DNA from: a virus
Reading direction: 5' to 3' (one strand)
DNA: 31,092 nucleotides
Virus genome (UHGV): UHGV-0151410
Shown: positions 265 to 31,092 of the stretch, piece by piece
Numbering within the stretch: the first letter of the stretch is position 1
How the letters are laid out: each line of letters opens with the position of its first letter
The notes under the pieces: model-generated
Told to the model about the DNA's origin: nothing
What the model saw: only the letters and a program-made list of their open reading frames with translations
Databases searched by the model: none
Position numbers and translations under genes: made by a program

Positions 265-281
265 ACCTTGGTTTAAGAGAA
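256..281. other. Left crossover site (hix/gix/cix-like, 12+2+12 bp)
   Basis: CAATCCTAAACC-TT-GGTTTAAGAGAA; half-sites resemble hix half-sites (TTATCAAAAACC / TTCTTGAAAACC) around a 2-bp core. Invertase stop codon (262..264) lies in the outer half-site. Confidence 0.7.
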
Positions 282-3574: not shown

Positions 3575-3577
3575 GAC

Positions 3578-3605
3578 AAGGCCCGATAGCGGGCCTTAAT
3601 TTTTA
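3578..3605. terminator. Bidirectional hairpin terminator between convergent chaperone genes
   Basis: AAGGCCCG-ATAG-CGGGCCTT stem-loop with T-run after it on the + strand and A-run before it (T-run on the other strand). Confidence 0.6.
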
Positions 3606-4133
3606 TTCAGGCTTTTGTGGCCATTCAGGATTTGCCGTATCCACACGGCTGACCAGAACACTGTAGCGTTCCCATGCTTCCAGTCGTGTGCGCTCCTCGT
3701 CTGTTGCCATATTCAGCCTGACAGCGCGTTCCAGCGGCTGGATGACTGATTCAGCTTCGGAAAGCAATGCGGCCTTTTGTGATTCGGCCTGTTGTTGCTG
3801 TTCGTCTGCCGTATAAATCCGTTTAACCACAGCTCCATCCTTAAACATCCACTTCCCGGAGTCATCAGCACGTCGGTTGGCTGTAATATCGGGAACCTCA
3901 ACGACGCTAAAACCTTCAGGGTTAAGCGTGGATGCATCTTTGGTGATGGCGACAATAATATTATTTTCATCGTAAACAATCTTTATTGTGTCTGGTTGAA
4001 AGTTTTTCACTTCCTCATACCAGTTTTTATCGTCTTCGGACCATAACCAGATAACATCAAAATTCTTTGTTAGCTGATATTGTTCTTTCGTTTTAGGATT
4101 TCCAGACTTAATATTTTTTAAATGCTGCATCAT
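3603..4133 (-). CDS. Tail fibre assembly chaperone (U-like), cognate of the currently expressed fibre C-terminus
   Basis: 176 aa, directly downstream of the expressed fibre gene on the minus strand; paralogue of 3035..3574. Confidence 0.85.
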
Positions 4134-7100
4134 TTACACCTGTGCGACGTTATACCATGTGCCATTGATGTATTTTTGTATTGGCCTGAAGATGGCTTCA
4201 TCATCGCCATCTACTTCACCAATGATTCTTAATCCGGTAATTGCGTGTCCGGCTTTTTCATAACGACCACCACGCGCCATCAATTGAACAACTCGCGTAC
4301 CCAGGCGAACATCTTTTACATAGCGTGAATCAAAATTCCCCCAGTTGTTGGGCTGTATCTGACCGTTAACAGAAAATATTACCGAGTTATCTGTATTTCG
4401 CTGGCTATAGAAATGCCATCCTGCCTCATCGCCTAACTCTGCAACTACTGGACGGGTTGAAGCACCCCATAAATTAAACGTTGCATTCTTTGTGGAGGTG
4501 TTGGAGCTGGATAGCGAGAACTTTTTACTATCACCAGCCTGAATGTTTTTAAAAGCAATAGCAACTCCATTCTGAAAGCGGAATACTCGCTGACTATTAG
4601 CGTAAACATCCAGAATACCATCACCATTCTGTTTGAATCCGGTGTCATTATCACCAAGAACAATAGAGCTACCACCTAACGCATTCGTCGTACCAACTCC
4701 AAGACTGCCATTAATGACGGCATTTACCAGAATATTTAGTGCATCCCATTTCAGCGTCATCAGGTCTTTTGTTGTGGTGCTCTGGCGGCTTCTCCATTTG
4801 AAATATTCATTGCCGTTGTCGCCTGTTTCAAACCACATGTATGAATCAGTGTCACCATCGGCATCATTTTTAAATCCAATCTTTGCCCAGTCAGTATTTC
4901 GAATCCAGGCAAGGATTGAGTCGTTTTCAAAAGTAAGTCCTCCGGACAAGATATCGCCTGAACGCTGAACGGCATTATTTGCTTTATTAATAAATTCCTG
5001 TAGATTTAAATCTTCCGCCGTTAGCTCAATATTTTTAGAACCATCAAACGACACCCCATTTATAGTTCTAGCAGTTTGCAACTTGGTCGCTGTCGCTGCA
5101 TTACCGGTTGTGTTCTGGTTACCAGCAATGTTTACACCCGGCAGGTTGATATTGGCGGAGCCATCGAATGACACGCCGCCTATTGTGCGTGCTGTTTGCA
5201 GTTTTGTTGCAGTTGCAGCATTACCGTTCAAACTACCATTGATGCCGCCAGTAACATTGAGTCCATTACCGATCGTAACAGCACCATTGGCATTGTTAAT
5301 GATAAGCGGCCTTAACCTATTATAGGTTCCCAGGCTGTTACCCGAATCGGTCAACATGAAGTATGTGCTTGAACCATCGTTTCGGATAAAGAATCCATAG
5401 TTGCCATAGGCAATGCGCAGACCATTCGCCGATTTGGAAATAATCTCGCCAGCGAATTTCGCATAGGAACCAGTCCTCAAGACTAACTCTTCCTGAGCGT
5501 CAGTTGTTCCTGTACATAAGCGATAAACATTATTCTCTATTGTTTCATGCCATATGCTTGCACCTGTGCTGGAGCGGAAACGTCGCAGATACATTTTTGC
5601 ATCGTCAACAACTGACGTGAGCATGTCATGTTTATACTCACTTTGCGGCACGCCATTGCTATTGATTCCTCCCCGAAGAACAGTGCCACCCGGCATGGTA
5701 AAAATGCCATCTTCACCGAATATCCAATCACCTGAATTAGTACCATTGCCGGTTTCTTTATTCGGCGCAGCACAATTTATCCGGATGCCTGGTCGTCTGT
5801 TAGGGTTATCGACACCATCTTTAAATATGTACCCATCAGTTAGTGTTGTGCCGTCATTTTTCGTATATGTAAAGCGGATATGACGGCTTGTATGGCTACT
5901 AAAAATAAGATCGCTTTTAGTGGTAAGTAATGGAGCTGTCAGACCTCCTAATAATGTGCCTCCGGATAGAGACAGCGCGCCAATGTTCTCTGGTGTCAAC
6001 GAAATATCAGTAGTGCCATCGAAGGTTACTCCGTTGATTGTTCTGGCGGTCTGTAATTTAGTTGCTGTTGCAGCATTACCATTGAGGTTTCCAGAGCTAT
6101 AGAAACCACGACCATTGCTAAAATCAATAATTATGTCGGCAGCTATACATTCAGCTTTAGGGTTGGTAGCCCCCCATTTGTATGTGGTTTGTCCAACAAT
6201 ATAATCCGTTGTAGGGACAACAACAGAAAGCCCCTCCTCCACAAGAACGCATACTGGAAATGCTCCGCCTTCAATATAAAAAACTGAGCTAACTTCATCG
6301 TCTTTATTGCTCATCGCAATAGAATGAATCGCCCGTTCTGCATCCTGATATTGCCAGAACATCCCGTATGCGTACCGCCCTCTGTCACTCCAACCAGCAG
6401 GCATCACAAAACCATTGAATTCGCAGTTGTTCATGCGATGTGCAGCTTGGCGCGGCGCAGTGGAAATAATAACCCGAGAAGCAAGTTCACCATTGCTCGT
6501 TGCAGATCTCTTGATGACTACAGGATAGAATTTACCCTCTTCAGCTCCCGAAGGAGCATTGACTCTGGTGAATTTCATCCCTTTTTTAAGGTCTACTTCG
6601 GCTTTGCTGTAAACATCAATATTTTTTCTTGTTAACGCTGCATCAGTTGGTTCTAATGCTCGGCATTTGCTATCTCCGGTAATCAGAAAGTTACCGTCAA
6701 TGTCTAATCCGGCATATTTATTGGTGTTGGTATCAGATTGTAGATGTAACGTCAGCCATGAGCGGTTGCCACTCCTTATCTCTGAATAAATTCTGAAACG
6801 ACTCCTCTGTACCCCAGCTGAATTATTCAGATAACCACTTACAATCCCTGACGCGGCTAAATCAGCGTCTGTTGAGTTAACAAGATTGATACCCTTAAAT
6901 TGGGGGACGTCCGCAACACCTAATCCAAGATTAGTACGCCCTCCAGAGACGCTGGATGCACCTAATCCCCCATGAGTAATTGGTAAAATACCTTTTATGC
7001 CCAGAAGAGCATTTGATGAACCATCAAAGTCGATGGCGTTATCACTTTGGAGGTCAACTTGAAGCGACCTTTTGGTTTTCAATTTCGTCGCGGTGTCGGC

Positions 7101-8435
7101 GTTCCCTGTCAGCTCCCCGGTGATCCCGCCGTTGAAAGTCTGGCGCGCACTCCATGTGTTAGCTGTGCTCAACAGGGGGATCTTTTCACCGCTGGTACCG
7201 AGTTCTCTTAAACCAAGGTATTGGATAACGGCCAGTGTGCTTGTTTTAGCCAGAATATCGCGACCGACTGACGTTAAATCAGTCTGCGCTACCGTATCCT
7301 TACCAGTGAAATAAGGCAGTTTGTTTGCACCAGTCGCAAGGGCAGCGAGCGCGGTTAAAGTTGCATCCAGAGGCTGTTTGCCTGCCAGCGCATTTGTCAT
7401 TGTTGTCGCAAAGTTCGGGTCATTGCCCAGTGCTGCTGCAAGCTCATTCAGGGTATCAAGAGCTTCAGGTGATGAGCCGACCAATGCAGAGATAGCAGCT
7501 CTTACATAAGCGGTCGTAGCAATCTGCGTGTTATTCGTACCCTGTGCAGCGGTAGGCGCAGTAGGTATTCCCGTTAATGCAGGACTTGCTAAAGGCGCTT
7601 TAAGGGCCAGAGCATTGTTGATAGTTGTGCTGAAATTCGGGTCGTTATTGATCGCAGCCGCTATTTCTTTCAGCGTATCCAATGTGCCAGGTGCACCGTT
7701 GATAAGTGCCGTTATAGCTGCCTTAACAAAGGCCGCATTTGCGATCTGTGTGTTGTTTGTACCGGGTTCAGGTGTCGGCGAAGTCGGCGTACCTGACAGA
7801 TGTGGACTATCGAGCGGAGCTTTTGTATCAACCAAATCATGGAGAGTTTTGACAGCCAGAGGTGTAGCCGCTTTTCTTTCTTCTGTACTGCTTATTTCAT
7901 TAGAGAATTCGACACCAACAGCACGGTTAACCCGGTATTTAAGCACAATCATTTCTTTAGTCACAGCCGTTGCGCCGTTAGGCACGATAACTCGACATAA
8001 TTCAATTTGATTCTGCCCAATAGTATTGTCCGTACGCGCGTAAATTCTTGCAGCACTGACAGAAGATGCGCTCTCTACCTGTGTCGTTTTTACACCATGT
8101 TCAAAATTGGCTTCCAGCACAATAATGTTGGTAGCCCCAGCCTTTACCGAGACAGTCACATCTTCTATTTGCTGAACGGATATCTGAACATTATTTACAT
8201 CTACTGAAGCAGCCCCTTTACCTTCTGAGTTTTCAGAAGTTATACGGACGCTCAACCCTGTGCCGGGAACTGGTTCAAATCCACAGTAAAAGCCCGGCAA
8301 AACAATATTTTTAAGTTTTCTGTTAAGAGCCGAACTACTATAGAGTTCGAAATATTGAACATCAGCAAGCAACGGCTGTGAGACACCAGAGGATAGTGTC
8401 ATTATGTTGTTCGTTTTATCAGCACCCATAATCAA
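4134..8435 (-). CDS. Tail fibre protein (P1 S / Mu S-like): constant N-terminal part (about 7216..8435) fused to a variable C-terminal part (4134..7215)
   Basis: 1433 aa; N-terminal tandem ~65-aa repeats (GTNNTQIA...LDTL.E.AAA..NDPNF), multiple fibre repeats (GNAATATKLQTARTI.GV.FDGS); crossover site lies in frame inside the gene. Likely true start is the ATG at 8427..8429 (the track start at 8435 is TTG). Confidence 0.9.
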   Translation of the reverse strand: MIMGADKTNNIMTLSSGVSQPLLADVQYFELYSSSALNRKLKNIVLPGFYCGFEPVPGTGLSVRITSENSEGKGAASVDVNNVQISVQQIEDVTVSVKAGATNIIVLEANFEHGVKTTQVESASSVSAARIYARTDNTIGQNQIELCRVIVPNGATAVTKEMIVLKYRVNRAVGVEFSNEISSTEERKAATPLAVKTLHDLVDTKAPLDSPHLSGTPTSPTPEPGTNNTQIANAAFVKAAITALINGAPGTLDTLKEIAAAINNDPNFSTTINNALALKAPLASPALTGIPTAPTAAQGTNNTQIATTAYVRAAISALVGSSPEALDTLNELAAALGNDPNFATTMTNALAGKQPLDATLTALAALATGANKLPYFTGKDTVAQTDLTSVGRDILAKTSTLAVIQYLGLRELGTSGEKIPLLSTANTWSARQTFNGGITGELTGNADTATKLKTKRSLQVDLQSDNAIDFDGSSNALLGIKGILPITHGGLGASSVSGGRTNLGLGVADVPQFKGINLVNSTDADLAASGIVSGYLNNSAGVQRSRFRIYSEIRSGNRSWLTLHLQSDTNTNKYAGLDIDGNFLITGDSKCRALEPTDAALTRKNIDVYSKAEVDLKKGMKFTRVNAPSGAEEGKFYPVVIKRSATSNGELASRVIISTAPRQAAHRMNNCEFNGFVMPAGWSDRGRYAYGMFWQYQDAERAIHSIAMSNKDDEVSSVFYIEGGAFPVCVLVEEGLSVVVPTTDYIVGQTTYKWGATNPKAECIAADIIIDFSNGRGFYSSGNLNGNAATATKLQTARTINGVTFDGTTDISLTPENIGALSLSGGTLLGGLTAPLLTTKSDLIFSSHTSRHIRFTYTKNDGTTLTDGYIFKDGVDNPNRRPGIRINCAAPNKETGNGTNSGDWIFGEDGIFTMPGGTVLRGGINSNGVPQSEYKHDMLTSVVDDAKMYLRRFRSSTGASIWHETIENNVYRLCTGTTDAQEELVLRTGSYAKFAGEIISKSANGLRIAYGNYGFFIRNDGSSTYFMLTDSGNSLGTYNRLRPLIINNANGAVTIGNGLNVTGGINGSLNGNAATATKLQTARTIGGVSFDGSANINLPGVNIAGNQNTTGNAATATKLQTARTINGVSFDGSKNIELTAEDLNLQEFINKANNAVQRSGDILSGGLTFENDSILAWIRNTDWAKIGFKNDADGDTDSYMWFETGDNGNEYFKWRSRQSTTTKDLMTLKWDALNILVNAVINGSLGVGTTNALGGSSIVLGDNDTGFKQNGDGILDVYANSQRVFRFQNGVAIAFKNIQAGDSKKFSLSSSNTSTKNATFNLWGASTRPVVAELGDEAGWHFYSQRNTDNSVIFSVNGQIQPNNWGNFDSRYVKDVRLGTRVVQLMARGGRYEKAGHAITGLRIIGEVDGDDEAIFRPIQKYINGTWYNVAQV
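5002..5431. repeat. Internal inverted repeat, copy B (perfect 5002..5396)
   Basis: Reverse complement of 1642..2071. Confidence 0.85.
7075..7219. repeat. Right arm of the ~145-bp inverted repeat
   Basis: Reverse complement of 265..409. Confidence 0.9.
7203..7228. other. Right crossover site (hix/gix/cix-like)
   Basis: TTCTCTTAAACC-AA-GGTATTGGATAA; inner half-site identical to the left site, outer half-site TTATCCAATACC is hix-like. Confidence 0.7.
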
Positions 8436-11259: not shown

Positions 11260-11630
11260 GCGCCCACCCCACTTGATTTCTGCATAACAATATCCATGCT
11301 CCCACCTTTCGCATAAAAACTAATTAATAAAGAATCTTCAGAAATTGATGTGCAACGAATCCCCTGCACATCCAAACCTGGCAAGTCTTGTCGTAGTTTT
11401 TTCATCATTCTCCCTTCAATAGCCACTTCAACTATGTGCGAAGTTTCAGAGCCGAATGGTTCATGCTTAAATTCTTCCATTGGACTCCCCCAAGAGGGTA
11501 AACCATAAACACTCCCTTCAGGGGTTCGTAGCCACTCGTCAAGTCGGGCCATCCATGCTGCGGTACTTCCTTCTGCAATAATGACACCGCTCTCATTCGT
11601 TTGAAGTCTTGCGTCTATTTCGTAAAGCAT
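11256..11630 (-). CDS. Baseplate wedge subunit, gpW/gp25-like
   Basis: 124 aa, typical size and position (immediately upstream of the J-like gene, overlapping stop/start). Confidence 0.5.
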   Translation of the reverse strand: MLYEIDARLQTNESGVIIAEGSTAAWMARLDEWLRTPEGSVYGLPSWGSPMEEFKHEPFGSETSHIVEVAIEGRMMKKLRQDLPGLDVQGIRCTSISEDSLLISFYAKGGSMDIVMQKSSGVGA

Positions 11631-11635
11631 CAGTA

Positions 11636-14600
11636 TTAATCCTCAAGCAGAGCATCCAGCGACTGGTCATTAATAGTTGTGCTCGCACGTGGTCGCGGCT
11701 GCGGCTGCGATGTTTTGACAACATTATCCGGATCGCCTTTTGTATTGTTCTTGTTCACATTCAGCAGATCGCTCAGGATAGAGCAGATGTTATCCAGCGC
11801 CTTCAACATAGCAGGATCGTTATTTATAGTGTCAGTAGTTAATGGTTGTCTTATTCCGCTTCGTGCGAGATCGGTTACAGTAGGGAGTTGTGGCGGCATA
11901 GCAAGAAAAGGTTCTTGCACAGCTGAAGCAGAGCCAAATATGGCGTTATTGGCACCAGTTGCTATTCCCCTAATGCTATTAGCGGTTTGTTGAATCCCCC
12001 CATTCAGCCAGTCTCCAACATTTCTTGTTAATGGGCTAATAGCTCGCGCAATCGCACTATTCTGCCCAGTAGACTGCATTACAAGATCGTTCAATATCCC
12101 TGTACTATCAATCCCCCCAACAAGTCGTGAAAGGTTATCGCCAACGGCAGGAATTACTGCGGTTCCTGCCTGTTTAAGCCCTGACACCGTGGAATCAAAT
12201 AGCGAACCAAAGAAGCTCTTATCCTCACCTGTAACCACCTTGTAGCCGTTGTCATAAATCTGCACATCACTTGGTGCCGTGATAGTTCGTTTTCCAGAGG
12301 TAACTACTGGCGCAGCTCCCGACATAGCCTGGTTGATTGCTAGAGCCTGCTCCTGCTGTGGGGTTTTCGGTGCTGGTGCTGCAGACGAAAAGCCCGCCAT
12401 AGCCTGGCTGATTGCTAGAGCCTGCTCCTGCTGTGGAGTTTTCGGAGTAGAAGGGGATACTTGATCTCCCGGAAGTAGATCAATGATTTCTGTATCGTGA
12501 TTAACAGTGCGTTTTTGTTGTATGGCTGTTGCGATATCAGCCACTTGAGAAGCTTTTTTAAATCCAAAAGATTTACCGGTTAAGCCGGATATCTTTTCAG
12601 TAAGAGCCTGATCCATTCCTTTCGCTTTTTCGGAAAGCGAAGATATAGAACCAAACGAAGTAGCCGACGCAAAATCCTTTACCAGGTCCAGACTTGTTCC
12701 AGCAAGGCTGGTAGCCGCGCCGCCAAATAAATTACTTGCACCACTGATTCCGCTTTCATTTATTGCGATTAACCGCTCAAGCAAACTCGATGGAGAGCCG
12801 GTATTAACATCAGCGTTCTCTGGATTAATCGGTTGTGGTTGGTTACCTTTTTTTTGTGGCTTTTTGGCGGCCTGGGCATGTTGTGCAACTTCAATTGGCT
12901 TAGGTGTTGCTGTTGGAACTGCATTCAATACAGGTTGTGCTGGAGATGTACCATCAGCATATTTCACCTTGCGACCAACGCTATATTGCGAATCACGAGC
13001 AATTAGTTGACCGCCATTCTCTTGCTGAATTTTATTAAGCCGCACCAATGTTTCATCGGAGAACCGCCCTTCCCAACGACCAGTATTTGCGTTGAATGCC
13101 CCAAGAGCATTCTTTATGAACTCATTGTTAACCGCCGGGTTTCCACCTTCTTTCGTCGCTATTGCACGAACTAATTGCGTCATAACCTCTGGGTTGCTGA
13201 CGTCTATTTTTTCATTAGGCGAGACGCCAAGATATTTACTGACGTTATCAATATATTGATTGGTATTGTTCTCATTTGGCGGCGCCCATTTGGAAATGAT
13301 GCTTGATACCGTCTGTAACTTCTGATGTCCTGCTGCGGCACTGGTGCCGTTGTAATAGCTTGACACTTGGTTTGCCAACGCCCTGATCCCTTCTTCAGGC
13401 GTGTTGAATCGAGCAAAACGCTGTTCACCTTTTGCATTCGGTGCTTCCAGCGTCGCCCCTTCCTGATTGGCGAAAACAAGGTTCCCGAGATTATTATTCC
13501 GATAATTGCGGTTTTTAGCGTTGCTGCCACCAATATTCAGATCCGCAGCAATGGTGTTACTGGTAGGCGCATTAAATTCAGCCGGGGAAGTATACCCGTG
13601 CTCACCAACACCATCTTCACCATCACGCCCGCCTTGTAGCTGTCGGCCCAGGTTATTAATTGCGGTTGCCGTTTGCTTGGTGCCATCTTCAACGGCTTTC
13701 TTAACCTGCGCAGTGCCTTCGCTGCTTGATGAGAACGATTCTTTTAGGCTGCTGAATACGGTTTTTGTCGTGTCTATAGAACTATTTATGTCACGAGCAA
13801 TATCTCCAGTGTTAAAATTCTGAAGTTTTTCACCTGCCCCTTCAAAGCCTAACGCAGAAATCCCTTTGCCTATTAGGTTGGTTGCACCCGACACTAAGCC
13901 GCCCATATCAAGCACATTAGCTGCTGCATAAGCGGTTTTTTGCTGTGTGGATACAGCATTATCATCACTTAAGCCAAAGGCTGCCTTTTGCGCCTCTGTA
14001 TCTGTGTAACCATCTATGGCGTCATATCCAGCCATTGCCAGCGAACCGATGATAGGGACCGCTCTTGCCGCTGTGGATGCTGCTGATTTAACACCTATTT
14101 TTGCAGCACTTTTGAGGGCTACAGATTCAGTTTTTTTCTTTGCAATGGCTTCGCCGGTTTTAATGGTGGCATCTTCAGCCACAACACCAGCTGACTTCAC
14201 GGCCTTAGCAGTATTTTTTGTTTCCTTTGCAATCCCCTTTGATGTATCGCTGATAGTGCTTACATCTTTGGGTTTGCTGATCTTATTTTTAACTACTTTT
14301 GCTTCTCCGACACCAGTGCCAGCCGCAGCGCTACCGGCAGCAACTTTTTCGCCAGCGGAGAGTGCTTTTTTCCCAAGATTGCGTCCTTTCCTTTTCGATT
14401 TGTTCCGTTTATTTTTTCCCGTCTGATCACCAATATTGATTTTATTTCTTCTGCTTGCTCGATTTTTCCAGAGATCACTTAAGCCGAACTTATTTCCAGA
14501 AGACACTGATTTCCGAAGCTTAACTATCTCGTCAGAAACATTTTCCAGACCATCAATTATTTTGTTGTCATTGGTCTGAAGGATTTTGGTTTGCTCTTCT

Positions 14601-15580
14601 ACTGCTTGTGCGGATTTTGTCTCAACAGCGTTATTGAACGCTTTTGCAGATGTTGCTTTTTGAGAATTCACCGCCGCCGGATAAGTAATTACTGGTGATA
14701 TTGCTTTCGAGGTTGATGTTTCTTTTTTCCCCTTTTCTACCCATTCTTTAAGAGATTCTGCTTTACCTGTGATCTCTTTAGTTATGTCGTACATGCCACG
14801 AGCCGCCATCCAGAACGGCCCACCAGCACCGACACCAGCTGCATTTGTTAAAGACTCTTCACTGGAAGACCGATTGCCATCTACCCCCATAATGGAACCT
14901 AGCTTTCTGAGAAAGCCAGCTTGTAATTTTGCGTCGGCTTTACGTGCGTTCTGCAATTCTTTTTTTCTGGCTACATCCTCATTGCTTTTTTGGGATACAA
15001 AACGTCCATTACTATCCCGCAGCGGGCCTTTTAGACTTTGGGGGGATTGTGGTTCAAGAGGGGCTGAATTAGCAGCTACCGGTATAAAACCGTCCGATTT
15101 TCGGATGGTCTGACGTGATTGCACGGAGCGAACACTTTCTGGTGTGTTCGTTGCAACGATAGAGCGGTCCACGGTTTGGTTTAACGGTGTCCTTTCCTTT
15201 TTAGCAGGGAGACGTTTTTTATATGGGTTAGTTTGGACATCTCTAACGCTATCAGATGTACTTTGCTCGTACTCTTTACGCCTGCGTGATAGTCTGTTGC
15301 TAACTCTGCCTTGCCTTTCGGCCTGTTGAGTTATGGTGCTTGCCCCAGAAAGAATGGCATCTTTGATCTCAGCAAGAGCCTTAAGTTCGTTTGTGCTCGC
15401 CCCCTGAATAGCGTCAATTATTGCGATACGGTCTTTATTCTCTTTCAAAATAACCTCTCTTTTACCAGCGGCGACAACGTTTCCCGGCTTGAGCTTTGTA
15501 TTTTTCTTCCAGGGCTTTTGACATATGGAGTGCTCGCCATTGTGGCAATTGTTCAACGTCACTAACGGGCTGATATCCAT
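11636..15580 (-). CDS. Tail tape-measure / injection protein (P1 Sit-like by size and position)
   Basis: 1314 aa, low-complexity Ala/Gly/Lys-rich segments, internal 25-aa tandem duplication (PKTPQQEQALAI.QAM.G x2). No transglycosylase catalytic motif was recognised by eye. Confidence 0.6.
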   Translation of the reverse strand: MDISPLVTLNNCHNGEHSICQKPWKKNTKLKPGNVVAAGKREVILKENKDRIAIIDAIQGASTNELKALAEIKDAILSGASTITQQAERQGRVSNRLSRRRKEYEQSTSDSVRDVQTNPYKKRLPAKKERTPLNQTVDRSIVATNTPESVRSVQSRQTIRKSDGFIPVAANSAPLEPQSPQSLKGPLRDSNGRFVSQKSNEDVARKKELQNARKADAKLQAGFLRKLGSIMGVDGNRSSSEESLTNAAGVGAGGPFWMAARGMYDITKEITGKAESLKEWVEKGKKETSTSKAISPVITYPAAVNSQKATSAKAFNNAVETKSAQAVEEQTKILQTNDNKIIDGLENVSDEIVKLRKSVSSGNKFGLSDLWKNRASRRNKINIGDQTGKNKRNKSKRKGRNLGKKALSAGEKVAAGSAAAGTGVGEAKVVKNKISKPKDVSTISDTSKGIAKETKNTAKAVKSAGVVAEDATIKTGEAIAKKKTESVALKSAAKIGVKSAASTAARAVPIIGSLAMAGYDAIDGYTDTEAQKAAFGLSDDNAVSTQQKTAYAAANVLDMGGLVSGATNLIGKGISALGFEGAGEKLQNFNTGDIARDINSSIDTTKTVFSSLKESFSSSSEGTAQVKKAVEDGTKQTATAINNLGRQLQGGRDGEDGVGEHGYTSPAEFNAPTSNTIAADLNIGGSNAKNRNYRNNNLGNLVFANQEGATLEAPNAKGEQRFARFNTPEEGIRALANQVSSYYNGTSAAAGHQKLQTVSSIISKWAPPNENNTNQYIDNVSKYLGVSPNEKIDVSNPEVMTQLVRAIATKEGGNPAVNNEFIKNALGAFNANTGRWEGRFSDETLVRLNKIQQENGGQLIARDSQYSVGRKVKYADGTSPAQPVLNAVPTATPKPIEVAQHAQAAKKPQKKGNQPQPINPENADVNTGSPSSLLERLIAINESGISGASNLFGGAATSLAGTSLDLVKDFASATSFGSISSLSEKAKGMDQALTEKISGLTGKSFGFKKASQVADIATAIQQKRTVNHDTEIIDLLPGDQVSPSTPKTPQQEQALAISQAMAGFSSAAPAPKTPQQEQALAINQAMSGAAPVVTSGKRTITAPSDVQIYDNGYKVVTGEDKSFFGSLFDSTVSGLKQAGTAVIPAVGDNLSRLVGGIDSTGILNDLVMQSTGQNSAIARAISPLTRNVGDWLNGGIQQTANSIRGIATGANNAIFGSASAVQEPFLAMPPQLPTVTDLARSGIRQPLTTDTINNDPAMLKALDNICSILSDLLNVNKNNTKGDPDNVVKTSQPQPRPRASTTINDQSLDALLED

Positions 15581-15594
15581 ACAGAGTCAGGTTG

Positions 15595-16416
15595 TTAATA
15601 ATGGTTAGCCATCCATTCAGATCTAATTGATGGGATAAACTCTCTATTGAGAAAGGGGACGTACAGTGTGGTTGTCACATCTGCACCCTCCTTAGCGTTT
15701 TTGCAATGTTGCGGAGGCAGGATCAGTCGGCTTGAGCCTCTCTCAATAGACATTTTCAGGCCGTGGCGTAGGTCTTTTTGCATAAGCTGTATGCGAGCCA
15801 CAAGCGGGGTAAATTCGGTTTCAAGCGCCATGCTTTCAATGATGTCAAAGCGTCGGTTAGCGGCCTGCGTGAAGTCCTCCGGATCGTCTTCAAGCGCCGT
15901 GCATAAAGCGAGTTCAGCAATTCGCATCCGTGCCACGCCAGCACTGTATTCGGGGCTTTTCATATCAGGAAGTGACGCTCGCATTCGTTCAAGGAGTTCC
16001 GCGCCTTTCCCGGTTAATGGTTTAAGTATCCAGTCAGTTGGTACTCCATTTACTGGTACGTTGGTTTTCACGTAAGGAGGTACAGTGAGTATTTCTACTG
16101 TTTGGGCCAGGTCGCTCAGGTTAATATCTGCATGATGCGTATTACCGCAGTGACTGCACTCATAGGAGTAGGTCATTACTGCATCGGGGCGCGAATTAAC
16201 AAATATCCACCAAAGAGCAGTTCTGCGATCCTGAACTGTCCAGTTAGCACTGTCGTTAATTTCACCATCCTGCATAGAGTTAAGGTACTCTGTAGTAGTT
16301 GCCTCATCTTCTGCCGGGTTCAGGTCAGAATATTTCAGCGCATCCTTCACGGTAGGGGCGTGGAACTGAATTTCTGTCTCAGGACGGGAAGGCAATGGGA
16401 ATTTTGGAATGTTCAA
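15595..16416 (-). CDS. Hypothetical tail-module protein
   Basis: 273 aa ORF with GGAGGA Shine-Dalgarno and TTG start; contains a CSHCGNTHH motif; function unknown. Confidence 0.5.
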   Translation of the reverse strand: MNIPKFPLPSRPETEIQFHAPTVKDALKYSDLNPAEDEATTTEYLNSMQDGEINDSANWTVQDRRTALWWIFVNSRPDAVMTYSYECSHCGNTHHADINLSDLAQTVEILTVPPYVKTNVPVNGVPTDWILKPLTGKGAELLERMRASLPDMKSPEYSAGVARMRIAELALCTALEDDPEDFTQAANRRFDIIESMALETEFTPLVARIQLMQKDLRHGLKMSIERGSSRLILPPQHCKNAKEGADVTTTLYVPFLNREFIPSIRSEWMANHY

Positions 16417-16804: not shown

Positions 16805-17560
16805 ATGAACAGAGCGGAATTAACAGCAAAAGCCGTCAGCCTGATTGAGTCAGCGACACCTATTAGTCGTAGTTTGGCACAAGCCAATGAGATCACGGAG
16901 GCTGCTTATCACCTGACTCGCGACCAAAAGCGACTGTTGTTTATTGTGGTGGGAAGACTTCGCTATGCTTCTAAGGATGGCGTTCTTGGTTCAGGTGCCT
17001 GTGAGTTGACGGTCAACGAATATGCAGAGATGTATAATTTGCCCTCTGCTGAAGCCAGCAAGGATATTCGTAAGGCCATTTCAGGTCTTAGCGAGAAGAA
17101 AGTTACGATATATAACCCTGATGAATCGACCGAATCAGAAGACAGTTATGAGTCTTATCCCTGGATGATTAAGGATGCCTATTCACCACGTCGCGGGACT
17201 TACATTATTCATCTTAATCCATATCTCATGCCGTTTTTTACTCTGCTTGATAAGAGATTCACAAGGCTGAATTTTACCGAAGTATCTCGCCTTACAAATC
17301 CTTATTCTATGCGGCTTTATGAGTCCTTATGCCAGTACAGGAAGGATGATGGAAGCGGCTTTGCCATACTTGGCGTCGAATGGATGCGGGAGCGTTATGG
17401 GTTACCAAAAAGCTATCAGCGGTATGCCGAATTTAAGAGAAGTTTTTTAACGAAGGCTGTAGCAGAGATTGAAAAAAATACAAAAATGAAAATAGTCTTC
17501 TCAGAGGTGACGGAAGGCGGCAAAGTTACCAGGATAAAATTTACCTATCAGCAGTCTTAA
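16805..17560 (+). CDS. repA: Plasmid replication initiator, Rep_3 (RepA/RepE) family
   Basis: Motifs HLTRDQKRLLFIVV, NEYAEMYNL and NPYSMRLYESL parallel the conserved blocks of pSC101 RepA / F RepE-type initiators; flanked by iterons on both sides. ATG at 16805 preferred over the track's TTG at 16772. Confidence 0.8.
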   Translation: MNRAELTAKAVSLIESATPISRSLAQANEITEAAYHLTRDQKRLLFIVVGRLRYASKDGVLGSGACELTVNEYAEMYNLPSAEASKDIRKAISGLSEKKVTIYNPDESTESEDSYESYPWMIKDAYSPRRGTYIIHLNPYLMPFFTLLDKRFTRLNFTEVSRLTNPYSMRLYESLCQYRKDDGSGFAILGVEWMRERYGLPKSYQRYAEFKRSFLTKAVAEIEKNTKMKIVFSEVTEGGKVTRIKFTYQQS

Positions 17561-25604: not shown

Positions 25605-26063
25605 ATGAGTCACGTTAACCCATCAAAAACACAATATCGCTTAATGCTGGCGATCGCGTCAGCTATACCAACCAGCCTGAATCCCCCGACAGGCTATCCC
25701 GCTGTTGTTGATGATTGTTTTCAGTATTACGGAGAAGACATCCTGAGCCAGTCAAAAGCGCTCAAGCAGTTATGTAAGGCTGGTATTCTTCACTGTATCG
25801 GAGATCCGGACGATTTTGTTGTTATGCTGGCGGATCGTGACTCTTTTCTACTGTCCTGGAAAGCTGGTGCGCGCGAAGCACGTTTGGGGAATGGTATTGG
25901 TTACATAGACTATAGCGATTGTCCGCTGGCATTTGCTGGTGGATATATGCATTGGCATGAGCGAAATAGGGGCCGTCAGCGTCAGTATCGTTTGAGTGAC
26001 TTTAACGTCTGTCACGGTTTCGAAGAAGCTGACAGCCAGGACATCTGGCTTCAGGAGCCTTGA
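25605..26063 (+). CDS. Hypothetical Cys/His-containing protein, second gene of the cassette
   Basis: 152 aa; AAGGGA SD 16 bp after the upstream gene; 3' end overlaps the convergent spanin-like ORF by 13 bp. Confidence 0.55.
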   Translation: MSHVNPSKTQYRLMLAIASAIPTSLNPPTGYPAVVDDCFQYYGEDILSQSKALKQLCKAGILHCIGDPDDFVVMLADRDSFLLSWKAGAREARLGNGIGYIDYSDCPLAFAGGYMHWHERNRGRQRQYRLSDFNVCHGFEEADSQDIWLQEP

Positions 26064-26383
26064 TCCCCCTTCCCTTCCCAAATCTCCCTGTTTCTTTGGT
26101 TATTCAGTGCGTTTCGTTGGTTGCATTCGTCGATCGTGCTGAATAACTGTTCAGCGTATGTCGGATACTTGTTTAACAGCACTGGCGTGTCTTCTGGCAC
26201 TAAACAAGGGGAGTAATCAATCAGATTTGCCTGCGGCCTGCTGGTGGCTTCTACGGTAATTTTCACTGGCACGCTGGTTGATGGCTTTTGCCCGTTCCCG
26301 CTGCATCCTGATAACGTCATCAGGCACACGCACATCGTTAATCCCAGCACGGCGTAACGCATTTTCAAGGCGAGTGATTTCAT
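26051..26383 (-). CDS. Outer-membrane spanin-like lipoprotein (Rz1-like, overlapped architecture)
   Basis: Signal peptide with lipobox LSGC (…MRYAVLGLTMCVCLMTLSGCSGNG…); starts inside the Rz-like gene in another frame and extends past its stop. Probable start is an internal Met (about 26362). Confidence 0.5.
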   Translation of the reverse strand: MKSLALKMRYAVLGLTMCVCLMTLSGCSGNGQKPSTSVPVKITVEATSRPQANLIDYSPCLVPEDTPVLLNKYPTYAEQLFSTIDECNQRNALNNQRNREIWEGKGDQGS

Positions 26384-26702
26384 TCTGGCTTTCCTCCCGT
26401 TGTTTGATTAGGTTGGCATTCAGTTCTGCTGTTTTGCGCTGGTACTCCTTTTCCAGTGCTTTAATTCTTTCGTTTTCGGTCAGCATGGCTGAGCGAGCGT
26501 TCTCACTTAACTGTAATGCGGTAGAAAGTGTGTTGTTCGTGCTTTCCAGTTGTGATTTTGAGTCTTCAAGCGATCGGACATACCTGATGTGTTCGATAAC
26601 TGCCGTCGTTGTTCGGTAAAATCCAGAAATGGCTAAAAGCGCAATTACAATCAAAATTATCTTTTTCAAAACCATCCTCTTCAGGTTCATTTTTGGTGTC
26701 AA
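26217..26702 (-). CDS. Inner-membrane spanin-like protein (Rz-like): N-terminal TMD plus coiled coil
   Basis: 161 aa; N-terminal hydrophobic segment KKIILIVIALLAISGFY followed by a long charged helical region (ENERIKALEKEYQRKTAELNANLIKQREESQNEITRLENALRRA). Confidence 0.55.
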   Translation of the reverse strand: MTPKMNLKRMVLKKIILIVIALLAISGFYRTTTAVIEHIRYVRSLEDSKSQLESTNNTLSTALQLSENARSAMLTENERIKALEKEYQRKTAELNANLIKQREESQNEITRLENALRRAGINDVRVPDDVIRMQRERAKAINQRASENYRRSHQQAAGKSD

Positions 26703-26745
26703 ACATGTACCAATTCACATCCTTTTGTGTTCCTAAGTGGTGTTG

Positions 26746-27549
26746 CTATTGTTCCTTTTTGGTGTTCTTTTGGAGCGCATCGATAACGCCTTGTGGCATG
26801 ATTAAACTGATTGCCGGACTCATTACTGCATCATCCAGTAGAGAACCAGTTAACGTGATGGCGACAGCGTTCTCTAAACCTTTGGTTGCCTGAGTGGTTG
26901 ACGTTTTAATGCGACCTGTAAGGGCTACGACACTCTCACTTGCTGAGTTAATTTCGGAGAGTAAAACTTCGGCGGCTGTCACTGCTTCCCGTAAAGCATC
27001 AATTTCATCCTGAGTAATGACTGGAGCCTGAGCGCCCCCAGCACCACCCTGTCCACCATTGCTATAACCACCAGCACTTCCAGCAGCTTCTATTTTTGCG
27101 TTAATGGCGTTCATGGCGGTTTTCAGAGCATCAAGTTTTAGCGCCGTCAATGCGTCCGTTAGAGATTGCGGAATGGAAACATTCCCCATCCCCTCAACAA
27201 GGGCGAAAGCAGGTATGGGGGTCAGCTCGTTACCTTTTACGTAGCATTCCCAGCCAATCTTCATCTGTAACAGCTCTGATGGCTTGGTGTATGGGGAAAG
27301 AGAATCAGCCAGTAATGAAGACGCTTTGCTGGCCTCATTGAGCTGTTCAGAAAAGCCAAGCAATTGAGTAGTCCAGGCCGAAACAGAATCAGGATAGGTT
27401 TTATCGGCGTGAACTATTCCCTGTATGGCGCTGGCGAGCGATGAGGCTTTTACAGAAGCTGCCCGGCTTATGGTTATAGATTCTGGTGTAGAGATACCGG
27501 CATCTGACAGAATTTTGAAGGCTTTAACTTCACCTATTGAATCAAGCAT
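26746..27549 (-). CDS. Hypothetical baseplate/spike-associated protein (start at Met overlapping the PAAR gene stop)
   Basis: ATG at 27547..27549 overlaps the TAA of the upstream PAAR-like gene by 1 nt; Gly-rich stretch GGYSNGGQGGAGGAQAP. The track's longer ORF (to 27648) runs inside the PAAR gene. Confidence 0.5.
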   Translation of the reverse strand: MLDSIGEVKAFKILSDAGISTPESITISRAASVKASSLASAIQGIVHADKTYPDSVSAWTTQLLGFSEQLNEASKASSLLADSLSPYTKPSELLQMKIGWECYVKGNELTPIPAFALVEGMGNVSIPQSLTDALTALKLDALKTAMNAINAKIEAAGSAGGYSNGGQGGAGGAQAPVITQDEIDALREAVTAAEVLLSEINSASESVVALTGRIKTSTTQATKGLENAVAITLTGSLLDDAVMSPAISLIMPQGVIDALQKNTKKEQ

Positions 27550-27833
27550 TATGCAACCTGAAAAATATCCTCGCCGTTGGCGATAACAGAACCACAAGAA
27601 AGCGGATCGCCCACACAGACAACTCCCTTTCCACCTATCGAAAACCATACTCGCGTCGATACAGCTGCCCCTGGATGTGCACTGTTACCGTCAGTGTGAC
27701 TGGGAAACATGGCACCATCTACAACAATTGGCTTACCGTTAACGGTGAACCAGGGAACAGTTTCAGCTACCAGTCGCGGCGGAAATCCTCCGTGACCAGA
27801 ACAAAGGGTGTCGCTGGTGGCTATTGCGCTCAT
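27549..27833 (-). CDS. PAAR-like repeat protein (baseplate central spike tip)
   Basis: 94 aa with PAAR-type pattern: CSGHGG..., ...NGKPIVVDGAMFPSH..., ...HPGAAVSTRVWF..., ...VGDPLSCGSVIANG.... Confidence 0.7.
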   Translation of the reverse strand: MSAIATSDTLCSGHGGFPPRLVAETVPWFTVNGKPIVVDGAMFPSHTDGNSAHPGAAVSTRVWFSIGGKGVVCVGDPLSCGSVIANGEDIFQVA

Positions 27834-27914
27834 TCTTCACCTCCTGGTTATCCTCCTATTGTCATCACTTTGTTATTTCGTCATTCAAACTGAGAGTTAA
27901 ATTTCGGAATATTT

Positions 27915-28080
27915 TTGTATTCTCAATTCATTCTCAAATAAATCTCACTGTCAGACCATCATTCATTGGGTGATTAAGATATTCTCAAAATGAACTCAAT
28001 AATCACTCTTTTTTTATCTCTTTTGGTGTGGATTTTTAGGTGCTTCTCTATTAAAATTGCATTTTGATTCTCAAATGTGT
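27915..28080. promoter_or_regulatory. parC-like centromere/promoter region with repeated (A/G)TTCTCAA motifs upstream of parM
   Basis: At least four ATTCTCAA copies (27919, 27930, 27981, 28067) plus related TCTCA motifs in an AT-rich region. Confidence 0.55.
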
Positions 28081-28100
28081 CTCAGAAGTGGAGCAAGAAG

Positions 28101-29057
28101 ATGCGCATTTTTATCGATGATGGTTCAACCAATATCAAAATGCTGTGGGAGCACGACGGGGAAACTCGCACTCACATCAGCCCTAACAGCTTTAAGCGCG
28201 GATGGTCAGCAACATTTGGTGCGGGCAAGCCGTTTAACTATGTCATTGACGACGAAAAGTATTCGTATGATTTGATCTCGCCAGATGTTCTGCCGACGAA
28301 TAACGTGGAATGGCAATACAGCCCGCTTAACGTCCTGGCTGTTCACCATGCCCTGCTGACAAGTGGCATTGAGCCGCAGGAAGTAGAAATTGTGGTCACG
28401 CTGCCTCTGGCGGAGTTTTACGACGACGACGCGCAATACAATCTCGATAACATCGAGCGCAAGAAAGCCAGCCTTATGCGCCCCGTCACGCTGAATAAAG
28501 GCAATGTGTTCACGATTAAGAAAGTTACGGTACGCCCGGAGTCTATTCCGGCAGGAATTGGCCTGTGCGACAATCTGAACCCTGCCCATTCTGTTCTTAT
28601 CGTCGATTTGGGTGGAACTACCCTTGATGTTTCAATGGTCGCCGGGCAAATGACGGCAGTTTCCCGTGTTTTTGGCGATTCGAATCTTGGCGTCTCTCTG
28701 GTTACCAGGGAAGTAAGGCAAGCACTTGCCAGAGCCAATACCGAAACGTCAAATTACAATGTCGATCAGCTCATTATTAACCGCCACGATGAAGATTATC
28801 TGAACGACAATATCAATGACCCATCAGCGATTGGTGATGTGAAAAAGGCCATTGCCGCAAGCATTGACCGTCTGCGTACCCGCGTTCTTGATGTGATTGG
28901 CGACTTTAAAGGATATACGCATGTCATGGTGATCGGTGGTGGCGCACCGCTGGTGGCAGATGCAATTCGCGAGCAAGTTAATATTCGTGATGACCGTTTC
29001 TTCGTGGCGGATGACCCGCAACTTGCTCTTGTTCATGGCCTGAAAGCAATCGGTTAA
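28101..29057 (+). CDS. parM: Actin-like plasmid segregation ATPase ParM (StbA)
   Basis: MRIFIDDGSTNIKMLW...ISPNSFKRGW...LAVHHALLTSG...IVDLGGTTLDVS...GYTHVMVIGGGA closely parallels plasmid R1 ParM (MLVFIDDGSTNIKLQW...). ATG at 28101 with SD. Confidence 0.9.
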   Translation: MRIFIDDGSTNIKMLWEHDGETRTHISPNSFKRGWSATFGAGKPFNYVIDDEKYSYDLISPDVLPTNNVEWQYSPLNVLAVHHALLTSGIEPQEVEIVVTLPLAEFYDDDAQYNLDNIERKKASLMRPVTLNKGNVFTIKKVTVRPESIPAGIGLCDNLNPAHSVLIVDLGGTTLDVSMVAGQMTAVSRVFGDSNLGVSLVTREVRQALARANTETSNYNVDQLIINRHDEDYLNDNINDPSAIGDVKKAIAASIDRLRTRVLDVIGDFKGYTHVMVIGGGAPLVADAIREQVNIRDDRFFVADDPQLALVHGLKAIG

Positions 29058-29064
29058 CGAGGTA

Positions 29065-29409
29065 ATGTCCATGTCTCAGGAACGTAAGAAAGTGATGATT
29101 TATCTTCGCCCAGAGGCTTATGCCAATGAAAAGGCGGCGAGCGAGAAGATAAAAAAACATAGCGATATGGCAAGAACCGCATTGTTGGCAGGGCTTGCGC
29201 TGGGAGAAGTCGATAGCAGGCTTCCAGGATTACTGGCTTCCCTGCTGACCGAAGACAATAACCCGGAGCTGATCCGAAAAATGCTGGCATCCTTCCTGGA
29301 ACTACCAGCTGCGGTTGAGGAGCGCCCTGCCTCCATTGAGCCAGTGAAGGAGCAAGTTGTTGCCAAAAGCGCGTCGGCGCGCAATCTGGCTGACTCTCTT
29401 CCTGATTGA
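29065..29409 (+). CDS. parR: ParR-like centromere-binding adaptor (RHH N-terminus)
   Basis: Directly downstream of parM; N-terminal KVMIYLRPEAY...ARTALLAGLALG resembles R1 ParR (…ALTAGLAL…). Start may be the ATG at 29071. Confidence 0.75.
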   Translation: MSMSQERKKVMIYLRPEAYANEKAASEKIKKHSDMARTALLAGLALGEVDSRLPGLLASLLTEDNNPELIRKMLASFLELPAAVEERPASIEPVKEQVVAKSASARNLADSLPD

Positions 29410-29427
29410 CAGAAGATGTGCTGGTTT

Positions 29428-29454
29428 AAGGCTGCAAATTGCAGCCTTTTTTAT
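29428..29454 (+). terminator. Rho-independent terminator after parR
   Basis: AAGGCTGC-AAATT-GCAGCCTT followed by TTTTTTAT. Confidence 0.7.
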
Positions 29455-29461
29455 GCATTAA

Positions 29462-29664
29462 TGGTGTCTAATTGGTGTTAATCTGGAACCAGTTAGGTGC
29501 TGTTATGGTGCAATTTTGTATCTGGTTCCAATTTGGGGCTGATTTCGTGTTAAATAGGATGCAATATAAGGTGTATTTGGTCTGATTGATGTTATACTTT
29601 GCCAAACATTCATGACTCCATTATAGAGCCTGTCCCGCATCAAAAAGGCTCTTATCTGGAACCG
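29462..29664. promoter_or_regulatory. Centromere/operator-like repeat region upstream of parA (TCTGG(A/T)(A/T)CC motifs)
   Basis: TCTGGAACC at 29482 and 29655, TCTGGTTCC at 29521, plus repeated GGTG...TCTGG units. Confidence 0.5.
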
Positions 29665-29696
29665 TTTTGATACCAAAATCACACCGAGGAACGGAT

Positions 29697-30338
29697 ATGA
29701 TTATATTGGTAGCCAGCCAAAAAGGTGGCTGTGGCAAATCAACCACCAGCGTAAATATTTGTGCGGAGCTTGCCCGCGCAAATAAGGACGTAGTTCTACT
29801 TGATGCAGATAAGCAAGGAACATCTGCCCGTTGGGCATCGGACCGTAATGCGGCAGAGGTTTCTCCAGTAATTCATTGCGTCCAGAAGTTTGGGAATATT
29901 CGTGAAACACTTCTTGATCTGGACAAGCGTTATGAATTTGTGGTTGTTGATACCGCTGGTCGTGATAGCAAAGAAATGCGCACCGGTATTACTGCGGCGG
30001 ATGTTTTGCTTGTTCCATTCAGGCCATCTCAGCCAGATTTAGACACTCTGGCGCATTTTGTTGAAGTCTTTGAAGAGGCTTTGGATCTGATGCCTAATCC
30101 TAGCATTAAGGCGTGCGCAGTCTTAACAATGGCCCCATCCAATCCGGTTGTGAATGAAGCCAATGAGGCCAAAGAGTACCTGGCTGAATATCCGCAACTG
30201 AAGTTGCTGAAAACCATCATTCGCGATCGCAAGGTTTACCGCGATTGTATGGCTGAAGGGAAGGGCGTTGTTGAGATGGACAACGGGAAAGCTAAAGGTG
30301 AAATCCAGATGTTGGTTAAGGAGTTATTAAGTGATTAA
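29697..30338 (+). CDS. parA: Small Walker-A partition ATPase (type Ib ParA/ParF-like)
   Basis: MIILVASQKGGCGKSTTSVN... deviant Walker A (KGGxGKS); ~213 aa with no N-terminal HTH; GAGGA SD before the ATG at 29697. Confidence 0.85.
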   Translation: MIILVASQKGGCGKSTTSVNICAELARANKDVVLLDADKQGTSARWASDRNAAEVSPVIHCVQKFGNIRETLLDLDKRYEFVVVDTAGRDSKEMRTGITAADVLLVPFRPSQPDLDTLAHFVEVFEEALDLMPNPSIKACAVLTMAPSNPVVNEANEAKEYLAEYPQLKLLKTIIRDRKVYRDCMAEGKGVVEMDNGKAKGEIQMLVKELLSD

Positions 30339-30618
30339 GCCTCGTAAATCGGTAAAAGCCCCCGAAGTAAAAGACCTCGATCTTGAACGCCGAATTGAGG
30401 CTTTTGCCAGCAAAGCTGATTTGGTGCCGGGTGAGCAACCAGAAGACAACAAAGTGCTCGATAAGGACGCCCCACGTGATTTTAAATCCATTCGTGTTGG
30501 CTTCAATGAATACGAGTACCAGGTACTTGATGCGTTAAGCAAAAAGCATAATCGCAGCAAATTGAATATGATCCGCCATGCTATCCTCATGTTAGCGGAG
30601 TCTGAGGAAGCAAAATAA
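30331..30618 (+). CDS. ParG/ParB-like ribbon-helix-helix centromere-binding protein (partner of the type Ib ParA)
   Basis: 95 aa, GTG start with AAGGAG SD, overlaps the parA stop; C-terminal RHH pattern (IRVGFNEYEYQVLDALSKKHNRSKLNMIRHAILML). Confidence 0.7.
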   Translation: MIKPRKSVKAPEVKDLDLERRIEAFASKADLVPGEQPEDNKVLDKDAPRDFKSIRVGFNEYEYQVLDALSKKHNRSKLNMIRHAILMLAESEEAK

Positions 30619-30659
30619 AGTCTTTCAGGTTGGTTTTAGAACTTAAAAAGTTTTGAACC

Positions 30660-30705
30660 AAAGGTGCACCAATACACCACTAATTTGGTGCACTTTTATA
30701 TCCTT
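30660..30705 (+). terminator. Putative terminator hairpin after the second partition operon
   Basis: AAAGGTGCACCAA ... TTGGTGCACTTT stem-loop followed by TTTTATATCCTTTTT. Confidence 0.5.
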
Positions 30706-30886
30706 TTTGGTACCAATTGTGTACCATTTGTCATTAATTTACTTATGCGCAAAAGTGGGCTTCATGAAAAAGCTCATTATTGAAATAACGATAGAAAGCA
30801 ATTTCTAATCAACTAGTGGTTGTCAGCCTATTCGGCTTATAAGATCATACGCTGTTATACGTTGTTTACGCTTTGAGGAATCCACA

Positions 30887-31092
30887 ATGAGTGAGGCAGA
30901 AGCCCGCCCGACTAACTTTATTCGTCAGATCATCGATGAAGATCTGGCCAGTGGTAAGCACACCACAGTACATACCCGTTTCCCGCCGGAACCAAATGGC
31001 TATCTGCATATTGGTCATGCGAAATCTATCTGCCTGAACTTCGGGATCGCCCAGGACTATAAAGGCCAGTGCAACCTGCGTTTCGACGACAC
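30887..31092 (+). CDS. glnS: Glutaminyl-tRNA synthetase, N-terminal fragment (runs off the window end)
   Basis: [69 protein letters not shown] is the enterobacterial GlnRS N-terminus including the HIGH motif. Confidence 0.95.

Follow-up and report, generated by a model that had tools for sequence, protein, structure and literature searches.

The glnS gene is a described cargo gene ('moron') of D6-like genomes, which also carry tRNA genes and toxin–antitoxin systems (PMC6799933; Silva et al. 2019, PLoS One). In phage D6 (MF356679 / NC_050154), a 1,662-nt gene labelled 'glutaminyl-tRNA synthetase, similar to E. coli GlnS' (orf62) lies directly 3′ of orf60/orf61, and next come a convergent dmt-like methylase gene, rdgC and baseplate genes; the E. 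coli plasmid ptetA (NZ_CP047013, 93 kb) has the same layout. The presence of glnS in D6-like phage-plasmids is thus already published (D6 GenBank record; PMC6799933), and the same cassette is found in pYU39_89 and the D6-like plasmid prophages of Salmonella Typhimurium ST213, where the host is Salmonella (PMC6799933). Among 50,697 phage records, homologues of glutaminyl-tRNA synthetase (GlnRS) occur only in D6 and in a few huge or metagenomic phages. The D6 paper that Silva et al. cite for glnS as cargo is that of Gilcrease and Casjens 2018. Two uncultured huge phages (LR745206 and LR756502, 630–735 kb) both encode a GlnRS homologue, 50–54% identical, within very large lytic-type genomes that have large sets of translation genes; D6-like elements, in contrast, are 90-kb temperate phage-plasmids and their glnS is a recent copy from the host genus. 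A further relevant system is cysS on plasmid pBT1 of Salmonella Typhimurium D23580 (PMC6333337, PMC6785131): as in D6-like elements, a complete plasmid-borne aminoacyl-tRNA synthetase gene coexists with a chromosomal copy, but the enzyme and the plasmid type are different, pBT1 is not a phage-plasmid, and functional replacement was shown there by experiment: D23580 requires the pBT1 cysS alone and can do without the chromosomal gene, whose expression is weak (PMC6785131). To these descriptions we add the exact boundaries of the glnS cassette, related plasmids in which its site is empty, a glnS lineage specific to plasmids and bearing tracts of conversion by the host gene, and a likely reason why short-read contigs break inside glnS.

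The window analysed here is the whole 31,092-nt stretch of virus genome UHGV-0151410. It is collinear over its full length with the circular plasmid ptetA at 99.9% identity (99.7% over the last 5 kb), and it matches phage D6 at 96–97% identity; positions 1–25000 align to D6 over 82% of their length (96.0% identity) and positions 26000–31092 in full (97.1%). The window therefore represents a slightly different sublineage from D6, nearest to ptetA, with a tail-fibre region unlike that of D6. The window has tail, sheath and capsid genes of the P1 type as well as a tail-fibre segment that is invertible, and the D6 GenBank record likewise lists P1-like sheath, capsid, baseplate and tail-fibre genes. 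The RepB-family initiator gene of ptetA maps to ∼16805–17560 at 99.9% identity, and two partition gene pairs, a ParM/StbB pair and a ParA-like pair, occupy 28077–30618. Relatives that are 99.7–99.9% identical to the window are closed circular records of 87–94 kb, and the PLSDB replicon type of the relatives is rep_cluster_1704. Collinearity with ptetA and D6, the P1-type genes, the RepB replicon and the partition pairs together identify the element as a D6-like, P1-related phage-plasmid, to all appearance extrachromosomal, with a circular form known from its relatives. The left end of the window, tested as a possible chromosomal repeat, matches only 11 chromosomal places.

The genes upstream of glnS form the second partition operon of the element, a candidate for type Ib. 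Its first gene, orf60 (29697–30338, plus strand), encodes a small ParA-like Walker ATPase of 213 aa that scores above the cut-offs of Pfam AAA_31, MipZ and CbiA and matches PHROG 164 'ParA-like partition protein' (9e-56); against NCBIfam ParA_partition it reaches 158 bits, under the 180-bit cut-off, and the D6 record labels orf60 as a possible ParA. The second gene, orf61 (30331–30618, plus strand; 95 aa), overlaps orf60 by 8 nt and ends with TAA at 30616–30618. From its position after orf60, its product is a putative ribbon-helix-helix centromere-binding partner; sequence searches gave no Pfam, NCBIfam or PDB match, and residues 53–94 weakly match an Arc-like repressor in PHROG (2.4e-4).

Downstream of orf61, 268 non-coding nucleotides (30619–30886) precede the glnS start codon at 30887, in agreement with the ∼270 bp that the original prediction placed between the partition operon and the start of glnS. 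The gene itself was also recognized correctly: positions 30887–31092 (plus strand) hold codons 1–68 plus 2 nt of glnS, cut by the window end, and their translation, which includes the LHIGH (HIGH) motif, is identical to residues 1–68 of K-12 GlnRS. At the nucleotide level, 5 of the 206 positions differ from K-12, all synonymously, one differs from D6 and none from the ptetA allele. The original prediction also noted that nagE precedes glnS in E. coli K-12, which we confirm, and proposed an alignment to the nagE–glnS region as a means of locating the breakpoint. BLAST and MAFFT alignments with K-12 and E. ruysiae place the start of homology to the K-12 nagE–glnS spacer at 30799, 88 nt before the ATG, with the homology becoming unambiguous from ∼30811–30820; against other enterobacteria it begins at ∼30811. 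These 88 nt (30799–30886, plus strand), derived from the Escherichia nagE–glnS spacer, carry the native glnS promoter, the 5′ UTR and the Shine–Dalgarno sequence. The promoter, identified by a promoter scan, consists of a −35 hexamer (TTGTCA, 30820–30825), a 17-nt spacer and a −10 hexamer (GATCAT, 30843–30848), and the Shine–Dalgarno sequence GAGGA lies at 30875–30879. A Dam site (GATC, 30843–30846) sits inside the −10 hexamer. The chromosomal glnS promoter is repressed by Dam methylation (PMC11741368, citing Plumbridge & Soll 1987), and RNA-seq of a dam deletion strain gave a glnS log2 fold change of +1.08 (PMC11741368). Compared with E. coli chromosomal glnS (b0680), the plasmid copy has the same −35 hexamer, GATC-containing −10 hexamer and Shine–Dalgarno sequence, but it lacks nagE upstream and the chromosomal sequence downstream, and it has a new hairpin terminator.

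The remaining 180 nt (30619–30798, plus strand) form a cassette-specific spacer that has no chromosomal counterpart: neither K-12 nor any of 80 glnS loci from enterobacteria matches it, and within PLSDB it occurs in 98 plasmids, all of them D6-like and glnS-bearing, and nowhere else. Its predicted RNA fold reaches −33 kcal/mol (z = −3.7), as no shuffled sequence did, and contains two strong hairpins at 30631–30660 and 30661–30696, the second with a T-run on its 3′ side; the spacer also includes the inverted repeat AAAGGTGCACCAA/TTGGTGCACTTTT. The hairpins at 30631–30696 may thus terminate the partition operon ahead of glnS, and the spacer as a whole is its probable terminator. We also considered 30619–30740 as a downstream centromere. 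Motifs of the TGGTG type recur at 29450–29600, upstream of the operon, and related motifs occur at 30650–30730 and in the spacers of relatives that lack glnS; no clean array could be defined from them. The window has more TGGTNCMA motifs than expected (22 as against 9.2), but they are scattered, and the spacer goes with the glnS cassette rather than with the hypervariable par genes, so that we prefer a terminator to a centromere here. Tandem Repeats Finder reported no array in 11500–15700.

The complete cassette can be followed in related elements. In relatives 99.7–99.9% identical to the window, the phage genes begin 48 nt after glnS. On this right side (ptetA, D6, pTB423 and pZ1323), the likeness to the chromosome fades ∼20 nt past the glnS stop codon and gives way to a different GC-rich hairpin with T-runs, followed by the dmt stop. 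The chromosome-derived part therefore amounts to ∼1.77 kb, from 88 nt before the ATG to ∼20 nt past the stop, and the plasmid cassette is 97.1% identical to K-12 over 1,746 nt, from 30799 to near the stop. In PLSDB, 14 D6-like plasmids lack glnS (e.g. pPSS-08-1_2, p1_000837, pEC361_3 and several Shigella dysenteriae plasmids); here orf61 is separated from the methylase gene by a ∼137-nt spacer that has short repeats and a hairpin terminator of its own. Compared with pPSS-08-1_2, ptetA has 1,972 nt in place of 137 nt, exactly between the orf61 and dmt stops. Positions 30619–31092 are thus very probably the left end of a ∼1.97-kb glnS cassette lying between the ParA-like operon and the convergent dmt gene, and gene, position, spacer and junctions are all the same in the window as in D6 orf62. 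Cassette carriers make up 98 of the 112 D6-like plasmids (∼88%). The statement that 'all D6-like genomes' have glnS (PMC6799933) is therefore slightly too strong, given the 14 relatives without it, and since ∼12% of D6-like plasmids lack the gene, it is dispensable for propagation of the phage or plasmid.

The junction between the partition genes and glnS is a recurrent trait of this family. Among complete E. coli genomes, 75 of 5,426 have it (all 30 of the records listed are plasmid-sized), and it also occurs in 98–100 PLSDB plasmids (of 98, 80 from Escherichia, 16 from Salmonella and two from Shigella) and in 11 IMG/VR contigs, seven of which hold an intact 553-aa gene together with both flanks. 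The original prediction had offered three accounts of this junction: chromosomal integration of the element, a plasmid that had captured a host fragment, or a chimeric assembly. Integration beside the host glnS would make ∼30799 a prophage–chromosome boundary, and it draws on the 95–97% identity of the sequence from 30799 onwards to the E. coli chromosomal glnS region and on the fact that the window stops before the far side of the gene. It is nevertheless extremely unlikely. In relatives 99.7–99.9% identical to the window, glnS is followed by dmt, rdgC and baseplate genes on closed circles of 87–94 kb; chromosomal homology ends within ∼20 nt of the glnS stop; nagE is absent upstream; the window contains a RepB replicon; and the window glnS carries SNPs of the plasmid lineage and equals the ptetA allele. 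As originally noted, moreover, the junction shows no integrase or att-like repeat, nor did we find an IS element there; no tRNA gene is present anywhere in the window, and direct repeats around the junction are at chance level only (7–11 nt). The junction being a recurrent and published family trait, we therefore consider both integration and chimeric assembly (discussed below) ruled out for practical purposes. A gene order with glnS beside partition genes is the normal D6-like layout, and genome scans should not read it as a sign of integration or mis-assembly.

Of the three accounts, the one that holds is that a plasmid captured a host fragment, given the recurrent family junction and the ∼1.77 kb of chromosomal DNA between phage-plasmid flanks in relatives. 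All complete plasmid alleles examined (ptetA, D6, pTB423, pZ1323, pYU39_89 and those of seven IMG/VR contigs) specify a 553-aa protein with one and the same altered C-terminus, …WAKLG* as against the chromosomal …WAKVGE* (V552L, with the last residue missing). One left junction and one altered C-terminus in all alleles point to a single capture, and the lack of att sites, IS elements, tRNA genes or direct repeats at the junction points to illegitimate recombination as its means. These observations support an old event that probably happened once and became fixed in most of the D6 family.

The description of the window gene as 'chromosomal-type' stands in so far as ∼1.77 kb of the cassette derives from the chromosome, but the allele itself belongs to a plasmid-specific lineage. 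A search of E. coli genomes with the pTB423 allele gave 76 records of 95% identity or more (those listed all plasmid-sized), and all 5,424 others fall at 90–95%. The plasmid lineage is about equally far from K-12 (5.9%) and from E. ruysiae (5.4%) and ∼13–16% from Citrobacter and Salmonella, the chromosomal Escherichia alleles compared being those of E. coli and of E. ruysiae, the one Escherichia species among the 80 enterobacterial loci. The comparisons show the plasmid alleles as what appears to be a lineage of their own, more than 5% outside E. coli chromosomal diversity in the pTB423 type. They are monophyletic over nt 1–900 of the gene. Over nt 900–1500, the ptetA, D6 and pYU39 alleles differ from K-12 by only 0.0–1.0%, in contrast to 4.7–5.5% for pTB423 and pZ1323. 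This pattern is the signature expected of gene conversion by the host chromosomal glnS, and it would include the window's allele type. The allele of the Salmonella plasmid pYU39_89 differs by 0.1% from D6 and by ∼15% from Salmonella chromosomal glnS, which shows that glnS in all likelihood moves into Salmonella along with the plasmid.

The plasmid gene appears to be complete and maintained. The ptetA allele scores 1070.8 bits against TIGR00440 glnS (cut-off 425.8), its Pfam domains are full length, and its product matches E. coli GlnRS structures in the PDB from end to end, with the VMSKR motif present. The window holds only 68 codons, and its copy is probably intact judging from relatives that are 99.7–100% identical. 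A frameshifted glnS in pSa1423-160k was not counted as a pseudogene, the record being nearly unannotated and seemingly error-rich. Compared with the E. coli chromosomal gene (b0680), plasmid alleles are 2.4–5.9% diverged in DNA, and the protein differs at 4–8 residues; codon differences from K-12 comprise 35–85 synonymous and 4–8 non-synonymous changes. The amino acid substitutions are conservative (V97I, I112V and V552L, with or without Q106K and L276Q), and I97, V112 and Q276 also occur in chromosomal GlnRS of other enterobacteria used as outgroups. All pairwise dN/dS values lie between 0.013 and 0.040, with dS up to 0.28 and dN at most 0.006. Such values show strong purifying selection on the plasmid glnS, and a dN/dS of 0.013–0.04 argues for kept aminoacylation activity.

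These data bear directly on whether the gene could be a non-functional passenger, host DNA that a P1-like generalized transducer acquired and has kept through linkage and not through selection. P1-type phages routinely handle host DNA and some relatives lack the gene, as such a passenger would allow; but the 553-aa reading frame is intact in every complete copy examined (five alleles from plasmids or phages, seven from IMG/VR contigs), synonymous sites have diverged (dS up to 0.28) while the protein has hardly changed (dN ≤0.006), the promoter, Shine–Dalgarno sequence and catalytic motifs are kept, and an Escherichia-type glnS persists in Salmonella hosts. We regard a passenger role as very improbable indeed.

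Strong purifying selection raises the question of why a temperate phage-plasmid keeps a selected aminoacyl-tRNA synthetase. A possible answer is that the native promoter drives the plasmid glnS and so gives the cell a second, active glutaminyl-tRNA synthetase. It would then provide extra Gln-tRNA charging capacity in carrier cells, especially in those replicating the element. Such an auxiliary function in translation would accord with the tRNA genes on these phages. As a whole, a captured glnS cassette of D6-like phage-plasmids that may supply auxiliary GlnRS is the explanation in which we have high confidence. In one study, no phenotypic difference was seen between Salmonella ST213 with and without the D6-like plasmid (PMC11721120).

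Alternatively, the cell could come to depend on the plasmid for GlnRS, its chromosomal glnS having been silenced or lost, and loss of the plasmid would then be costly. Such addiction through an essential gene was proposed for D6-like glnS in PMC6799933, has a precedent in pBT1 cysS of Salmonella D23580 (PMC6785131) and fits the strong purifying selection on the plasmid gene. Our results make it unlikely. In a set of 5,425 E. coli genomes, 5,424 records hold a chromosomal-type glnS, and the chromosomal gene has therefore not been lost in carriers; this shows that E. coli hosts, as far as genome records can tell, retain their own glnS. The conversion tracts point to an intact chromosomal copy alongside the plasmid copy. 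Also, 14 related plasmids lack glnS, and D6-like plasmids already have toxin–antitoxin systems.

Another rival role is that of a counter-measure, in which an extra, slightly variant GlnRS would protect the cell or the phage from a toxin or defence system aimed at GlnRS or tRNA-Gln. Phages often carry tRNA genes against tRNA-targeting defences. The location of glnS in a methylation and anti-restriction neighbourhood offers circumstantial support, as does L276Q, which lies near the MSK loop in some alleles. Against this, the substitutions are few and conservative and recur in the chromosomal GlnRS of other enterobacteria, we identified no defence or anti-defence gene associated with glnS, and no toxin is known to target GlnRS. 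We consider a counter-measure very unlikely. A role in tRNA-dependent DNA modification was also considered and rejected: Mom DNA modification uses Gly-tRNA (PMC13219725), and nothing ties Mom-type modification to GlnRS.

A further reading is that the plasmid glnS is a selected module with a specific role rather than a redundant spare. Its Dam-sensitive promoter, beside a phage Dam-family methylase gene, would allow a replication-coupled burst of GlnRS during lytic replication or on entry into a new cell. We put this forward as a speculation that is doubtful on present evidence. If it were true, the GlnRS burst would aid translation or make the host depend on the element. Separately, recombination between the plasmid and chromosomal copies could make the phage-plasmid a vehicle for essential-gene alleles between Escherichia lineages and between genera.

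The position of the window end bears on the remaining account of the junction, a chimeric assembly in which a plasmid contig was falsely joined to a chromosomal glnS contig. Two near-identical glnS copies per cell form a repeat that could confuse an assembler, and the window does end inside the gene. However, the same junction and 180-nt spacer are shared with D6, 98 PLSDB plasmids, 75 E. coli genomes and 11 IMG/VR contigs, and the glnS part of the window (206 nt) has the SNPs of the plasmid lineage (no difference from ptetA, five from K-12), so that a chimera is as improbable as the integration considered above. The window last departs from K-12 glnS at base 31015, exactly 77 nt before its end at 31092; the next difference of ptetA from K-12 would fall at window position 31120. 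A contig end 77 nt past the last plasmid-specific SNP fits an assembly break and not a false join. We infer that the window probably ends where a de Bruijn assembler with k = 77 broke the contig, at the point where plasmid and chromosomal copies become identical. A break of this kind at a shared glnS stretch suggests, in turn, that the host of the window element has its own glnS. An independent IMG/VR contig, 99.3% identical to the window, stops at the same base, and 4 of the 11 IMG/VR contigs stop in the 5′ part of glnS.

Carriage of glnS varies among the D6-like plasmids. It has been reported that the gene is present in all D6-like genomes (PMC6799933); by contrast, we find that it is absent from 14 D6-like plasmids in PLSDB, some of them from Shigella dysenteriae. 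In the glnS-less plasmids, a spacer of 137 nt takes its place and carries a terminator of its own (e.g. 6018–6154, 6007–6141 and 5942–6079 in the loci L004, L005 and L006, respectively).

Where glnS is present, the encoded GlnRS differs from the Escherichia coli K-12 enzyme at residues 97 and 112, which lie past the window end (gene at 6588–8249 in L001, the locus of plasmid ptetA). Every plasmid allele encodes I97 and V112, as do Citrobacter and Enterobacter; the E. coli K-12 and E. ruysiae enzymes carry V97 and I112 instead. These residues hint at an old capture or at a donor from a different Escherichia lineage. Adjoining glnS in ptetA, to which the window is most closely related, is a Dam-family methylase gene (L001 8298–9137) annotated as a pseudogene with its N-terminus missing, while the copy in phage D6 is intact.

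The last SNP between the window and chromosomal glnS is at 31015, and the window ends at 31092, exactly 77 nt further on. The independent IMG/VR contig L098 terminates at exactly this base. Of the 11 IMG/VR contigs with the par–glnS junction, 4 break off within the 5′ part of glnS. The pattern resembles an assembly break at k = 77, brought about by the presence of glnS on both plasmid and chromosome.

Immediately upstream of the ParA-like operon is a second partition pair, of type II, comprising ParM/StbA and StbB (28077–29409); the element thus carries two directly adjoining partition systems. Among D6-like plasmids, the ParA-like/orf61 cassette is hypervariable, as is the repeat region upstream of it (together 29410–30618; L001 5100–6320), with 45–60% identity upstream of the cassette and 65–91% within both genes, between flanks that are 96–100% identical. 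This suggests that partition (incompatibility) specificity has diversified through cassette exchange.

The part of the window most different from D6 is 1–7226, where the 3′ end of a cin-like recombinase gene (1–264) adjoins an invertible tail-fibre segment whose inverted repeats are nested (258–409/7075–7226, 95%; 1621–2078/4995–5452, 98%). No tandem array was found in the window's own large tail transglycosylase gene (11636–15580, minus strand); the ptetA gene has 225 nt extra, as three 75-nt units, at window position 12318–12445.
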